Positions 9,869-31,543 are shown, numbered from the stretch's first letter. The stretch: DNA of 64,000 nucleotides from an uncultured Acidobacteriota bacterium (GCA_963777605.1 CAVZRV010000027.1:224001-288000), one strand, 5' to 3'. Numbers and translations are program-made. Notes: a model not told the origin generated them from the letters alone.

Positions 9869-11515
9869 CTACTCGGGTTTCTTTTCCGACAGTCGTTCCA
9901 GGAAAAGGTATCGATCCCGGTGGGCGGCCGGTTCGGCATGCGATTCCACGTCGATCCGCATCATCATGGACTGGGCGTCCCGGCCGCTCGCTGCGGCAGG
10001 CCAGTCCGGCAATCCGTGCCCGTTGGGATCTCCAGACTTGATGAAGTTCGCAAAGTAGCCCTGCAGGGTCTTCGACACCCGGTAATCGTCTTCCGTCCAG
10101 GCAAAGACCGGGTTGGTCGACAGGTTGCCCATGGCGTATTCGATCTCTGCCGAGTGAACCGCTCCGGGAGGCACCGGCGGAACTTCCGACTGGTCCCCGC
10201 TCGAGGCATCGCCTCCCGCCTCTGACTTAACCGGGGGCCGCGGATGCGCGTAGAGAGTAGCGGTAAACCGGCTTTCCCGCCAGTCTGGCGCTGCAGGTCG
10301 AACCACCGCCAGGTGCTGAATCCGATGAACCGGTCCCCGGCCAGGTCGGTGGCCGACTGAATCGTTTGCTCGACGGTGGCCGACGGATACAGTCTCAGGA
10401 TCTCGTCGGCATCGCTGCCGTAGAGTTCCCGGACCGCCTTGGCGAAATTCTCCGGGGTGGGGTCATTTCTGCCGAAAATGGCCCGGTAGTTTGATTCCTC
10501 CGAGTTCCAGCCGACCAGCAGCGGCACATGCGCCTGCTCCCCGTTGCGGTAGATTTCCAGCGGAGGTTTCGGAAAGAAGTAGCCGTCCACATTCCAGGAG
10601 AACCGGGGCGCGCCCGGACTCGCGGAAGCCTCGAGCAGTTCCATCGCCGACAGGGCCCGCAGCTCCTTCAGCGATGAGGCTCCCAGTTGCTCCCCGAACT
10701 TCAGCCCGGACCGCTCGGCGTCGGCAAGAGACGTCGCAGGACGGGAACCGAGGACCGATCCGCTCTCACCGATCGCACCCGCAATCAGGTCCCGGGACTG
10801 AGGGGAGGCCATTTGAGCGCTCACCGCGAAGGAACCGGCAGACTCCCCGGCGATCGTGACTTTGCGGGGATCCCCTCCGAATGCCGCGATGTTCTCCTGG
10901 ACCCAGCGAAGGGCCTGGGCCTGGTCCATCAGGGTGTAGTTCCCCGAAGCGTGATGGGAGGACTCGCTGGTCAACTCGGGATGGGCAAAAAAGCCGAAAA
11001 TCCCGAGCCGGTAGCTCATGGTTACGACGACGATTCCGCGCTGTGCCATGCTCTCACCGTCGTAGCGGAACTCCGATCCGTCACCGGCGACGAAGCCTCC
11101 TCCGTAGTAGTAGACCAGACACCGGCAACTTCCTGTCGGGCGAAGTGGAGGGAGTCCAAACGTTCAGGTAAAGGCAGTCTTCGCTCATCCCGCTGTTGCG
11201 GAATCTCATGTCGTCGAAGATTCTCCGCTGCATGCACTGAGGCGCGAACTCGTCGGCACGCCGGACCCCGTCCCAATCCAGCGGAGACTGCGGCGGTTGC
11301 CAGCGCAACTCACGCACGGGCGGAGCCGCATAGGGAATTCCCCTGAACTCCAGCACCCCGCTTTGCTTGACCAGTCCTTCAACGATCCCGTTGGCAGTCC
11401 GAACCTGCGGTGATCCGGGGGAAGCGGAGGATCCGGCCCCGGGAGCCCCTGACCGGGCGATCGCAACCGGCGCCAGCAGAAAGGCAGCGACAGAGAACAG
11501 CAGTAAGAGTTTCAT
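9869..11515 (-). CDS. Type-B carboxylesterase/lipase family protein (frameshifted)
   Basis: FRGIPYAAPP..LRW, SEDCLYLNVWTP, YRLGIFGF, GESAG nucleophile, AVHSAEIEY and GDPNG, spread over three ORFs. Confidence 0.9.
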
Positions 11516-11735
11516 GTCCACCCGATAATATGCCAGCAGGTGCCCAGGGAATAGAACAATCTTCCCCTGAGATCCCGCTGCGGCCGCTCGTCAGGATCTC
11601 ACCGGAATTTCTGCCGGGAGGACATTCCACCCCCTCAAAGAGAAACCTCCACCCCCCTTATTGGATCTTTAAATATGAATGGACAAATTGAATAAGAGCC
11701 CAACTGGGGTGGGATAGAAAGTTGAGGGTAATGCA

Positions 11736-27099: not shown

Positions 27100-29026
27100 T
27101 TAGGCCACCATATCCAGGGTCCCCTGGGTGATTCGTTCGATGTCCACCAGGAGCTTCACCCCGCCGTGGACTTTTGCCATCGCCAGGATGAACTCCGCGT
27201 CCTCCAGCATGGGGGGTGCATCCTCGACATTCGAGGCATCGATATCGACGATTTCCGCGACCGATTCGACCAGGATCCCGATTCGGCGCAGGCGACCTTT
27301 CCGATGGATCTCGACGATGATGATTGTTGAGCGCTCGTCGTAATCGATCGGCGGTAAGCCGAACCAGACGCGCAAATCAATGACCGGCATGATCTCGCCA
27401 CGCAAGTTGATCACTCCCTTGAGGAACGGGGGGGTCGCAGGAACCGGGGTAATCTCTCGGATCACGATGATCTCCCGCATCTGGTTGATTCCGATCCCAT
27501 AGTCCTGCTCCCCCACCCGGAAAAGCAGGTACTTCCCTTCCTTGTCGAGCATCATCTTGGCCGTCGATCCCTGTGCCCGGGCCTTCTGAATCCTTTCGGC
27601 AACATTACCCAGGTCGAGCTTACTCCTGACTGCTTTGGCTTCAGGCTGAGCCTGGTAGGCGGCGTCCGCAAACCTGGTGTCGATAAACGTATCAAGGTCG
27701 ACCTTCTGTCCGACACCCATCCGATCGACCATGTAGTCGAGCATCCGCCCAAGGTCCTCTCTGACCGGGTAAAGATTGACCGTCTTGATCCCGGCCGGTT
27801 CGGTGAGGACGTTCTTCAGAACCGCGCTGGTAAGGCCAAGTTCGCCCCTGGGATCGAGAAATCTGACCCCGATCTCGGCACTCCGGCCGGGATCCTTATC
27901 CACGAAGCGGCCCGCCGTCGTGAGCATCGACACAAACTCCTGGACCGCCTCCGGGTGTGCATCCACAATTTCCTTGCGAAGCGTGACCACACAACAGGGG
28001 TGATTGTCCCAGGCTTCACTGGAAAGGAACTCGAGGCGGGCGACGTTCGAAGAGATCGCTTTTGTCCCGAGAGGCTCGGCGACCATGAACCCGGCGGCGT
28101 CGGAGTTCGAGTCGAGGAGTTCGGGCATGCGGGCAGGCGGCACGACCTCAAAAGCGACGTTTACGTTCGGCTCTCCGGGAACTCCGGGGTGAAGCCCCAG
28201 TTCCGACAGGTAAAGGTGTGCGAGCATGTGGTGAACTGAAAGGCGATGGGGGAGGTAAAGGACCCGGTCCCTGAAACGCCTCCTCCGGCCGTGCTGATGC
28301 GAAACGCTTGCTGCGCACGAGGATGCTCCCGTTCCGATGCGCCAGAAGTACCATGCGCAGTGGAGCGCCGTGGCCAAACAGGTCCATGCTGATCGGAGCC
28401 AGGATGAAAGCACCATCCACTTGCCCCTGCTGGAGCGCTTTCGAAACCGGGTTCCAACTGCTTTCACAACGGGTGGTAAGAGCAAAGTGACGGGGTTCGA
28501 GCTCTCCGTTGGCGATCAACTCCTGGAGCACGCCCAAGAGGATGTGGTCGGTTATCTGGATGTGCGAGATCGTCAGATTGACTCTGCCATCCGGCAGGAC
28601 TTCCGGCTCGCGTACCGACGGCTGGTCATCCTCAGAGGCCTCCCCTGAAAAGACCGCTTCAATCTGCTTGAGCAGGTCATCCGGCGTGAACGGTTTTGGC
28701 ACGAACCCGCTGACTCCGGCATTCTTGGCGGCCAGTGTCTCGCTCTGTTCTCCGCGCGCTGTTGCCATGATGAACGCCAGCGAGGCACTTTCCTCTCGGC
28801 TTCGGACCCATTTCAGCAGTTCGAGGCCGCTCATTTTCGGCATGTTCCAATCGCTGATAATGAGGCCGATCCCGGGTTCGCGCTCGAGCAGCGCGACCGC
28901 TTCGGTCCCGTCCCCTGCTTCAGTCACGTTCGTGAAGCCCAGCTTCGCGAGAATTGATCGCTCCATCTTCCGCATGGCACCGGAGTCCTCCACAAGGAGG
29001 ACCTTGAGATTTCTGTCGATACTCAT
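27100..29026 (-). CDS. Fusion protein: CheY-like REC, NrtA/CmpA/NasS-like solute-binding domain and CheW (single frameshift near 28275)
   Basis: REC: VED, ISDWNMP, TA, KPF. Binding domain: ITDH, SW, LAP, HRNGS, SVHH, VPP..MP, AEP, W..HPCC. CheW: KYLLF..YGI..REII..ITPVP..P.FLKGVINLRG..PVIDLR. No signal peptide. Confidence 0.85.
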
Positions 29027-29163: not shown

Positions 29164-29904
29164 CTAGAAGGTGAAGGCTCCTTCGAACTGCATGTCTTTC
29201 GGCTTCATTTTCAGGTCGACCGTCTCAAACGACGTCTCCATGTGAAGGAGGATCTGAGACTCGCTCCCATCGAAATAGGGCTTATCGGAATCGTCAGTTC
29301 GGGGAAAAAACAGCAAAGCACCAGGTTGATTTGCACCCGGCGGAACATATCGGCCAATCGGGCAATAGGCATTCGACGAACTCGACGACAGCCAGACTTT
29401 ATTCTTCAGCGTGTCGATGGTCGAGGTTCGCAGGAAATTCTGAACCGTCTGGAGAGCCGGATGTCCAGCAGGTTCGGAATAGAACGTCACTTCAGCGATC
29501 ACTTCATCGCCGGGAGGCTGTTCGATGTAGTCCGCAACCGCCTGGGCCAGTTCCTTGTTGTCCGGCTGGGCAAGGAGCCGGGATTGGCCGATCGCCGCCT
29601 TGACAGCCTTCGAAGTCACAAAACGGAACCGGAGATAAATGTGCACTTCCCGATCACCAACTCCTCCCGCAATTGAACCGACGTCCGTCCTGCCGACGAT
29701 ATCGCCGTCGCTCCGCATAAACCCGGGCAAGCTGATCCCCGTTGTCGCATAGGGGTATGCCCAGGGCGAGTTTGAGAGAATCTTGACGCAATCCTTCTGG
29801 CTCCACTCCGAATATGGTTTCTTTTGCCAGAACGGTGCGGACAGCACCATGGACGCAAGTAGAAACAGAACCGACAGGGCAATCAAGACTCCAGAACGCT
29901 TCAT
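29164..29904 (-). CDS. Exported protein of unknown function
   Basis: GAGGAGG SD, signal peptide, N-terminal WQKKPYSEWSQKDCVKILSNSPW motif. Confidence 0.8.
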   Translation of the reverse strand: MKRSGVLIALSVLFLLASMVLSAPFWQKKPYSEWSQKDCVKILSNSPWAYPYATTGISLPGFMRSDGDIVGRTDVGSIAGGVGDREVHIYLRFRFVTSKAVKAAIGQSRLLAQPDNKELAQAVADYIEQPPGDEVIAEVTFYSEPAGHPALQTVQNFLRTSTIDTLKNKVWLSSSSSNAYCPIGRYVPPGANQPGALLFFPRTDDSDKPYFDGSESQILLHMETSFETVDLKMKPKDMQFEGAFTF

Positions 29905-30030
29905 GGTTCCTCCTCGGCTGATGAGTTCAACAGCAGCCTCAGTTTTCCGAAACATTTACATTCTGCTAGTCCGAAGGGAATTTCACCAGAGGGCTGCGCC
30001 TCGGATTGTCGGTCAGTTGACTTCTCCGGA

Positions 30031-31543
30031 CTACATGAAAAGGGCCCTGAACTCCTCCCTCAGTTGAGCCTTCTGGACCTTCGCCATCGTGTTTCGGGGG
30101 AGCATATCGACAAAGAGTACCCGTTTGGGAACTTTGTAATTGGCCACATTGCCTTTGGCTGCTCCAAGGATGTCCGCCTCGCTGATTGCGGCCCCGTCCC
30201 TGGCCACCACGACGGCTACCACGGCTTCCCCAAAATCGGGGTGAGGAACCCCGATCACCGCCGACTCCTTTACTCCCGGCAGTTCGTCGATAAACAGTTC
30301 CAGCTCTTTTGGGTAGACGTTCAGACCACCGGTAATCACCAGGTCTTTTGCACGGCCGGCGATGCTGACGTATCCATCCCGGTCGATACTGGCAAGGTCT
30401 CCCGTGTTGAAGAACCCATCGCTCGTGAAGTCCTCCGCCGTCTTGTCGGGCAGTTTCCAGTACCCGATAAATACATTCGGGCCGCGCACCTGGAGATTTC
30501 CAATCTCGTTCGGCCGGAAGCATCTCGCCCTGATCGTTCGTGACCCGAGCCTTCACGCCGGGAAGCGGCAACCCGACCGTACCCGGCTTGCGGACACCGT
30601 GCAGTGGGTTGGACGTATTCATGTTGGTTTCGGTCATCCCGTACCGCTCCATAATGCGATGGCCGGTTCGTTCCTCGAATTCCGAGAAAGTCTCTTCCAG
30701 AAGCGGCGCAGAGCCCGAAATGAAAACACGCATGTTCCTGCAGACGTCGGCTGTGAACCCACGGTCCGCGAGCAGCCTGGTGTAGTAGGTCGGAACACCC
30801 ATCATTACAGTACATTCAGATAGATGGCGAACGACCTCCGATGTATCAAAAGATGACAACCATCGCATGCTGGCGCCGCTCATGAGCACGCATCCGACTC
30901 CAACAAAGAGGCCGTGAACGTGAAAGATGGGCAGGGCGTGAAGCAACCGGTCGGCAGGAGTGAACTCCCATGAGGCGACCAGAGCCTGGGTATTGCTCAG
31001 CAGGTTCCCATGAGTGAGCATGATTCCTTTCGGGACCCCGGTCGTTCCCGATGAGTAGAGCAAGGCAGCGAGGTCGTCCTTGTCGCGAGAGACTGGGCTC
31101 GCCTCTTCCTGCGAATCCCTTGAACCATCGATCAAAGTCCCAGACCCTGCTGCATCCAGAGTGAAGACAGGCTGTCCCGTGAGGGCGCGGATCGACGACT
31201 CCCGCGCAGGGTCGCAGACCAATGCAGCAGGTTCAGCGTTGTCCAGAAAGTAGCTCAACTCACGCGGTTGAAAGGCGGGATTCAAGGGGTGATAGACAAA
31301 GCCGGCGCGCAGGCACGCCAGGTACAGGCAAAGCGCCTCAGGAGATTTGGCTGCCTGCACCGAGACCCGGTCACCAACTCTTACTCCGGCATTTCGAAGA
31401 AAGTTCGCCAGCCTTGCTGACTGACGCTCCACCTCGCCGCAACTGTATGATCTGCCGCCTTCGGTGCAGAGCAACTCTCTTCCGGGATCGTTCTCCAGGC
31501 CAGCCTGGAAATGTGAGAACAAATTGCATTCCTGGTCCAACAT
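30031..31543 (-). CDS. matB: Malonyl-CoA synthetase (MatB-type acyl-CoA ligase; frameshift near 30500)
   Basis: YSSGTTGVPKG, HALPIFHVHGLFV, MGVPTYYTRLL, SGSAPLL, ERYGMTET, PRNTMAKVQK. Adjacent to malonate transporter genes. Confidence 0.85.

Follow-up and report, generated by a model that had tools for sequence, protein, structure and literature searches.

In a 64,000-nucleotide stretch of DNA from an uncultured Acidobacteriota bacterium (GCA_963777605.1 CAVZRV010000027.1:224001-288000; hereafter the window), the minus strand from 29026 to 27100 carries a gene in which a CheY-like receiver (REC), a domain with the fold of a solute-binding protein (SBP) and a CheW domain follow one another. 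The locus is a single gene, whose product is a genuine member of a large family that is annotated in databases but experimentally unstudied. On balance we favour the reading that the product is a cytoplasmic CheV-like coupling protein, composed of a CheY-type receiver, a His/Cys-lined class-II binding fold resembling that of 3UN6, and CheW, and that the gene is split at this locus by an assembly indel.

The gene is distributed over two overlapping open reading frames (ORFs), ORF A (29026..28148, 292 aa) and then ORF B (28485..27100, 461 aa). Residues 9-122 of ORF A match Pfam Response_reg (E = 6e-25) and are followed by the beginning of NMT1_2; ORF B takes up the NMT1_2 profile at positions 129-245 (E = 4.7e-20) and ends with positions 1-134 of the 138 of the CheW profile (E = 1.8e-34). 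Response_reg, NMT1_2 and CheW are all present in this order and are divided by one +1 frame break in the assembly. The top NCBIfam match of the receiver is CheY (PRK10610, 8e-31) and the C-terminus matches E. coli CheW (1e-22), both below the cut-off. When the family profile was compared with known structures, the receiver resembled CheY (8e-37) and the C-terminus E. coli CheW (2ho9, 9e-36). The catalytic set of the receiver is intact, with D59, T89 and K111 falling on columns invariant in the family, and the CheW domain is complete. No N-terminal signal sequence was found, and the protein begins directly with the receiver domain. The original prediction, made from the window alone, had joined the two ORFs across one indel near 28275 into a cytoplasmic protein of about 640 aa with no signal peptide and a canonical C-terminal CheW. 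These points held: the gene and the motifs it had quoted (VED, DWNMP, T, KP, ITDH, HRNGS, AEP and HPCC) were all located, and the alignment of homologs narrows the break to 28266-28279.

This architecture is common. A homolog search with the C-terminal 388 residues returned 738 proteins at E <= 1e-3, and the best 120 were examined for domains. PF00072, PF13379 and PF01584 occur together in 113 of them, 112 of which are 635-663 aa long, and PF00072 is missing from the other 7, namely the gene call of the window itself (342 aa) and six proteins of shorter length (417-565 aa). The best homolog is 55% identical to the window protein. In databases some of these proteins are named "response regulator receiver modulated CheW protein" (as in Desulfarculus baarsii DSM 2075) or "chemotaxis protein CheW". 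In contigs representing one genome per species, tblastn confirmed 476 of the 557 stretches picked out by pattern matching. The hosts of the best 80 loci are Desulfuromonadaceae, Desulfarculaceae, Desulfobulbia/Desulfurivibrio, Desulfobacterales and Syntrophobacteraceae, together with Melioribacteraceae/Ignavibacteria, Latescibacterota, KSB1, Anaerolineales, Rhodothermaceae and Bacteroidota bins. The family is found chiefly in anaerobes, sulfate/sulfur-cycling bacteria among them, and has members in culture, namely Desulfarculus baarsii, Dethiosulfatarculus sandiegensis, Desulfurivibrio dismutans and Desulfonema magnum.

A literature search on the REC-NMT1_2-CheW architecture found no paper characterising it. 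NMT1 is absent from the text of two preprints that classify CheW-like domains, in which architectures represented by under 40 sequences were set aside, and neither "CheW" nor "NMT1" occurs in a review of SBPs in signalling. The original prediction had stated that no characterised protein is known to have this architecture; in this respect it stands, but the combination of Response_reg, NMT1_2 and CheW is widespread, with the 476 confirmed species-level loci, and is neither rare nor new to the databases.

An alignment with 8 full-length homologs shows that frame B is frame A moved by +1, and that the switch lies between ...RPEEAFQ in frame A and RVLYLPHRLSVHH in frame B, at about 28266-28279 of the window, inside CAGGGACCGGG. 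One might read the two ORFs as genuinely separate genes, the first encoding the receiver and half of the middle domain and the second the other half and CheW, and the public gene call on the contig is indeed a 342-aa product (P0001). However, the break sits in the middle of the fold of a single domain, ORF B lacks a conserved start and its open frame extends 210 nt upstream of the break by chance alone, and the 113 of 120 best homologs with all three domains are single proteins. By these comparisons, the existence of two separate genes is effectively refuted.

The break is likely to be an assembly error, because two further genes of the window are frame-broken alike, and the organism itself probably has an unbroken gene that only an assembly indel divides. 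The adjacent AMP-binding synthetase is divided on the minus strand into an AMP-binding frame (31543..29966) and an AMP-binding_C frame (30489..30031), and a carboxylesterase, also on the minus strand, into 11521..11081 (COesterase profile 2-105) and 11049..9964 (128-329), with its break near 11081-11120. All three breaks in the 64 kb require the identical +1 offset, and since the direction is the same in unrelated genes, systematic assembly indels fit better than three independent decays. The indel argument draws on these three split genes of the window; a genome-wide GC3-GC2 count was dropped because ordinary adjacent genes fit the same geometry. The source genome is a bin of 53 contigs that is 96.7% complete with 5.7% contamination. 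In the 112-sequence family alignment, all 61 invariant columns and 164 of the 177 columns that are at least 90% conserved are retained by the window copy, one of the 13 differing columns being the residue lost at the break itself, and no second lesion was seen in the window copy as judged from this alignment.

The alternative is that the break is real, the gene having been acquired horizontally and being now a pseudogene in this organism, and several observations on the origin of the gene bear on it. The REC-NMT1_2-CheW fusion was absent from the 40 relatives searched (15 of the same family and 25 of the same order, a count that includes the unpublished genome G018). A sample of 400 other genomes of the phylum, among them the unpublished G063 and G018, contained it in just 3, where the copies are 42-45% identical to the window copy, compared with 55% for the best matches outside. 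In a quick IQ-TREE tree built on the window copy, the three copies from the same phylum and 76 of the 80 loci (four were dropped because they contain a stop or lack an anchor motif), the window sequence groups as sister of a Desulfuromonadaceae/Geopsychrobacteraceae clade with a Shimodaira-Hasegawa-like approximate likelihood ratio test (SH-aLRT) support of 99. The approximately unbiased (AU) test rejects a single clade with the same-phylum copies (p = 2.9e-62), although long branches are involved and the tested group, while defined by an outside label, was chosen after seeing the tree. From this sequence comparison the patchy distribution looks like horizontal transfer. In the only public sequencing runs found, which share 0.07-0.10 of the sampled words, none of the pieces listed reaches the break, the nearest ending at 28216, and the pieces obtained from the runs at 85% likeness were short ones from relatives. 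A recently acquired gene may decay. Against this, all invariant columns are kept with no second lesion, breaks of the same +1 direction occur in at least two unrelated genes elsewhere in the 64 kb, and the genome is a contaminated bin in many contigs. We consider a real lesion rather unlikely, and retain the assembly indel as the explanation of the break.

To describe the middle domain, a homolog (P0002) was modelled by AlphaFold2 with 112 sequences, giving a predicted local distance difference test score (pLDDT) of 90.0 and a predicted template modelling score (pTM) of 0.78. In Foldseek, the top structure for the middle domain was 3un6 (E = 2.5e-21, template modelling (TM) score to the target 0.90, 23% identity), whose entry title describes an S. 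aureus ABC-type (ATP-binding cassette) ligand-binding component with zinc. It was followed by NrtA (2g29), by the cytoplasmic C-terminal regulatory domains of CmpC/NrtC (9uai, 9uak and 8wm7_C), and then by TauA, SsuA and Thi5; for 2g29, 2i48, 9uai and 8wm7_C the E values were 1e-16 to 1e-14 and the TM scores 0.62-0.71 as against 0.90 for 3UN6. The two ends of the protein retrieved CheW structures (2qdl, 8c5v_E, 6s1k_C) and CheY structures. From the model and these matches, the fold of the middle domain is that of a complete two-lobed class-II binding protein with a hinge. Sequence profiles ranked the structures in the same way: a 36-sequence middle-domain profile matched 3UN6 at 2.7e-23 and CmpC, NrtC and NrtA at 1e-8 to 1e-7, and with a profile of the N-terminal lobe 3UN6 was the sole detectable match, with none to NrtA or CmpC. 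A look-up of the middle domain in the ESM Atlas gave generic NMT1-type SBP clusters only.

In NrtA and CmpC the ligand cleft is made by loops and helix starts, and the conserved residues of the domain fall on these positions. A vicinal Cys pair is invariant in the 112-sequence alignment, as are, fully or nearly so, five His residues, and the cleft is conserved as a Cys/His cleft. The family and 3UN6 have in common IT-H, a Trp, the hinge GH, PH..S.H, AEP.G and the vicinal CC. For CmpC, the nitrate ligands are reported as W319, H408, G452 and K481, of which H408 hydrogen-bonds nitrate and K481 corresponds to NrtA K269, which sets specificity and is Glu in CmpA (PMC13287603). In our alignment, H408 falls on the invariant H266, G452 on A317 of VAEP, and K481 on C346, the second Cys of HPCC, so that the position of the nitrate Lys holds a Cys that is invariant in 112 of 112 family sequences. 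W192 of the family, the possible counterpart of CmpC W319, is invariant and lies before the start of the printed CmpC alignment. As judged from these alignments, the pocket is conserved but belongs with the Cys/His type of 3UN6 rather than with NrtA-type nitrate pockets. In two papers, 3UN6 is described as a zinc-binding protein of unknown function, and related SBPs are modelled with two Cys and one or two His as the ligands of a metal (PMC13592312, PMC6344411). By homology, and from the 3UN6 entry title and these papers, the cleft probably holds a metal such as zinc. In two membrane-anchored cousins (L102 in G272 and L103 in G387), V-T-C-H and S-C-V replace ITDH and PCC, which is another Cys/His arrangement at the same cleft positions.

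The original prediction had called this domain an NrtA/CmpA-type nitrate- or anion-binding domain. Its NMT1_2 fold was borne out, and the cleft is conserved, but the nitrate label should be dropped because the nitrate Lys position holds an invariant Cys and 3UN6, a zinc-bound structure, is closer. It could still be argued that the domain is a sensor of nitrate, nitrite or bicarbonate of the NrtA/CmpA/NasS type: it belongs to Pfam NMT1_2, its structural neighbours (E 1e-16 to 1e-14) include NrtA, CmpA and the nitrate-sensing cytoplasmic domains of CmpC/NrtC, the His that bonds nitrate in CmpC (H408) is conserved, and one relative (P0139) joins the receiver and middle domain to a nitrite/sulfite-reductase domain. 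However, the charge-complementing Lys, or Glu in CmpA, is a Cys throughout the family, 3UN6 is much closer in both profile and fold, and the N-terminal lobe alone detects 3UN6 only; we regard this kind of sensor as improbable.

A different possibility is that the domain takes no diffusible ligand and is a structural zinc-thiolate or redox switch, or a scaffold whose oligomerisation is controlled by phosphorylation, reporting redox or kinase input only. The invariant vicinal Cys pair with its accompanying His residues would suit such a role, as would the hosts, which are mostly anaerobes (Thermodesulfobacteriota, Ignavibacteriota, Latescibacterota and Anaerolineae), and the receiver lies directly before the domain, which is the usual place of an effector domain. 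On the other hand, the conserved residues are found at the ligand-cleft positions of NrtA/CmpC and the fold is that of a complete two-lobed binding protein with a hinge, and we think a ligand-free switch or scaffold unlikely. A metal- or ligand-binding cleft is the reading that we carry forward.

The receiver and the middle domain also occur together on outputs other than CheW. A HMMER scan of 1.84 billion cluster representatives (50% clusters) with the middle-domain profile gave 135 matches at E <= 1e-30. Among the best 45 representatives, REC was present in 36, CheW in 10, SpoIIE/PP2C in 6, HATPase_c_2 in 6, STAS in 5 and NIR_SIR in 1, and 3 of the 10 with CheW also carried H-kinase_dim and HATPase_c, that is, a CheA core. 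In all 10 of the close fusions whose domain positions were read, the receiver directly precedes the middle domain. Examples are fusions to SpoIIE (P0124, P0129, P0122), to a CheA-like kinase core with no Hpt match (P0126, P0134 and P0137), to HATPase_c_2 followed by STAS (P0155, P0156) and to NIR_SIR (P0139), and a HisKA-HATPase-REC-domain protein (P0141). Their middle domains match the family profile at E values of 1e-113 to 1e-153, and at 1e-286 in P0122, which has two copies of the domain. More distant relatives of the middle domain are joined to MCPsignal, GAF, methyltransferase or ABC permease domains or stand alone. One protein of 848 aa (P0249) has MCPsignal followed by a C-terminal NMT1_2 domain (E = 2e-32), and is a chemoreceptor with a cytoplasmic binding-protein fold. 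That the identical pair is fused to other signalling outputs elsewhere argues that the receiver and middle domain behave as a portable input module, with CheW one of several outputs.

What this cassette senses can be proposed only tentatively. One possibility is that the receiver and the Cys/His fold form a cytoplasmic sensory cassette with several outputs that would hold a metal and sense sulfur species, a small metal-binding ligand or redox. Hints of sulfur come from a rhodanese gene in 14 of the 80 loci, from a DUF169 gene followed by a DsrC-like gene in 5 loci, and from the one NIR_SIR fusion. The DUF169 gene (6 loci) shares the strand of the family gene at a distance of 20-105 bp, being downstream of it in five loci and upstream in one (L075). 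In 5 loci of two clades, DUF169 directly downstream of the family gene is followed by a DsrC-like gene of the cysteine-desulfurase type (aminotransferase class V). The DUF169 loci are L031, L045, L057, L053, L075 and L077, and the second gene is also found at L051. The rhodanese genes stand in at least two arrangements; HDOD genes were found at 16 of the 80 loci, in three phyla, and HtpG at 12. The annotation of neighbours covered the ten frequent clusters, with 13 rarer clusters left out.

With respect to chemotaxis genes, the own genome has 1 CheA, 6 further CheW-domain matches and 6 methyl-accepting chemotaxis proteins (MCPs), all outside the window. The CheA and two CheW are about 245 kb from the gene on the same contig, one MCP lies about 5 kb before the start of the window, and three CheW-domain matches follow an MCP on another contig (C29). 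At this last place (C29:50582-53870 of G000), two of the three matches are in a 381-aa frame and one in a 157-aa frame, which may reflect a multi-CheW protein or a split gene. Whole-genome searches placed no other CheW and no MCPsignal, H-kinase_dim or BPD_transp_1 in the window (C27:224001-288000) besides this gene, and no BPD_transp_1 permease on contig C27, in agreement with the original prediction that the window lacks che, MCP and ABC permease genes. Across the family, CheA (PF02895) is present in 71 of 73 genomes that hold a member, these being the genomes of 70 of the 80 loci and three same-phylum genomes.

The two genomes in which CheA was not found are Anaerolineales metagenome-assembled genomes, G428 (L031/L105) and G439 (L057/L104). 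They contain 5 and 3 ordinary transmembrane MCPs, respectively, with CHASE3, 4HB, PilJ or dCache sensors, and several CheB-CheR fusion proteins; they may have a CheA-less MCP system or be incomplete bins.

From the domain composition, we infer that the protein most likely acts as follows. Through its CheW domain the protein would dock into an MCP/CheA array whose genes lie elsewhere in the genome, CheA, or a different kinase in genomes without it, would phosphorylate the receiver, and the cleft of the middle domain would bind a metal and/or a small cytoplasmic ligand, not nitrate in the NrtA manner. Both inputs together would then alter the coupling of receptors to the kinase by the CheW domain. 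Docking into an array is compatible with the presence of CheA in 71 of 73 genomes, and the pairing of CheW with CheA-P5 is textbook knowledge.

Several points weigh against this picture. Ligand and metal are both proposed from homology alone. The gene is not beside che genes in the window, and there are no che genes among the ten most frequent neighbour clusters annotated over the 80 loci. In the two Anaerolineales genomes with no CheA, the family protein provides the sole CheW domain, and CheA is therefore not a universal partner or kinase; its co-occurrence elsewhere is weak support because CheA is common in these phyla anyway. Finally, the break could be real, as no listed read piece covers it and none of the 40 close relatives carries the gene.

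CheV is a coupling and adaptation protein of chemotaxis arrays with the order CheW-REC. As in CheV, a CheW-like docking domain and a phosphorylatable CheY-like receiver with its phospho-acceptor Asp are combined here in one cytoplasmic protein, and this family too occurs in genomes with CheA and MCPs. The order is however reversed, with REC N-terminal and CheW C-terminal, a binding-protein fold of 330 residues is placed between them, and the family gene is usually an orphan outside a che operon. The single-domain CheW is matched by the C-terminal 135 residues, which cover the whole CheW profile and E. coli CheW, but about 500 extra N-terminal residues with two potential inputs precede them. 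NasS, a cytoplasmic NrtA-like sensor, is a known allosteric use of the periplasmic-binding-protein fold. The C-terminal regulatory domains of NrtC/CmpC (8wm7, 9uai/9uak) likewise have an NMT1_2-family fold inside the cell and the pocket His is conserved, whereas here the nitrate-binding Lys is replaced by a Cys of the invariant CC pair, the similarity is weak (E ~1e-8), and the output is CheW, not an ABC ATPase or an ANTAR partner. 3UN6 is the best match in both structure and sequence and has in common the CC pair, PH..S.H, the hinge His and AEP.G, but it lacks HIQITDH and the H-P before CC that are present in the family. Moreover, 3UN6 and the SBPs beside clade B carbon monoxide dehydrogenase (CODH) genes are secreted or lipid-anchored parts of transporters, whereas the present domain is cytoplasmic, between REC and CheW.

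The coordinates of the features are collected in Table 1. The neighbours of the gene are the split synthetase, genes for an HNH protein, MadL, M14 peptidases and ThuA, and, directly upstream on the same strand (29164-29955, minus), a gene for a 263-aa protein that has an N-terminal hydrophobic segment and matches nothing in Pfam. The isocitrate dehydrogenase encoded in the window has its best named matches, at 80%, in Acidobacteriota and Calditrichia metagenome-assembled genomes, a mixture from which no phylum was assigned. The split synthetase is malonyl-CoA-synthetase-like and stands beside MadL, its break lying near 30500-30520 with a +1 offset.

Table 1 Features of the REC - binding-fold - CheW gene in window coordinates.
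Feature	Position	Strand	Remarks
Whole REC - binding-fold - CheW gene	27100..29026	minus	~641 codons reading through one +1 break; stop 27100-27102
CheY-like receiver	28661..29002	minus	ORF A 9-122; E13-D14 acidic pair, phospho-acceptor D59 (SDWNMP), T89, K111
VED(S) motif	28982-28993	minus	
SDWNMP motif	28838-28855	minus	
T in MATA	28757-28768	minus	
KP in PKPF	28688-28699	minus	
Middle domain, N-terminal lobe and hinge	28280..28609	minus	Frame A (HIQITDH, SWNP, AHRNGS); Pfam, alignment, P0002 fold model
HIQITDH motif	28544-28564	minus	
AHRNGS motif	28325-28342	minus	
Frame break	28266..28279	minus	+1 offset (one base extra or two lost), within CAGGGACCGGG; 8-homolog alignment
Middle domain, C-terminal lobe and helical subdomain	27649..28265	minus	Frame B (PHRLSVHH, VAEPLGT, W..HPCC, RFADAAY); NMT1_2 4.7e-20
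VAEPLGT motif	28063-28083	minus	
HPCC motif	27991..28002	minus	Invariant in 112/112 family sequences
C-terminal CheW-like domain	27127..27534	minus	ORF B residues 318-453; Pfam CheW 1.8e-34

For this window the message is a smaller one, namely that the gene is probably intact in the organism. For the family, finding the cassette also on outputs of the PP2C, CheA-core and STAS kinds points to a general sensor module, previously undescribed. If our interpretation is correct, the signal of the cassette feeds arrays through CheW, and also CheA-core kinases, PP2C phosphatases and STAS/anti-sigma partner switches. Since the family is large and has cultured members, the idea is directly testable.

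Chemotaxis arrays are thought to receive their inputs via receptors. A coupling protein that itself has a pocket for a ligand or metal, along with a phosphorylation site, would open a second, internal route for signals, and such internal entry is an open question for CheV-like proteins. The CheW form of the cassette would give arrays a receptor-independent internal input, and in the two Anaerolineales genomes the family protein may be the only link between MCPs and a phosphorelay, there without CheA.

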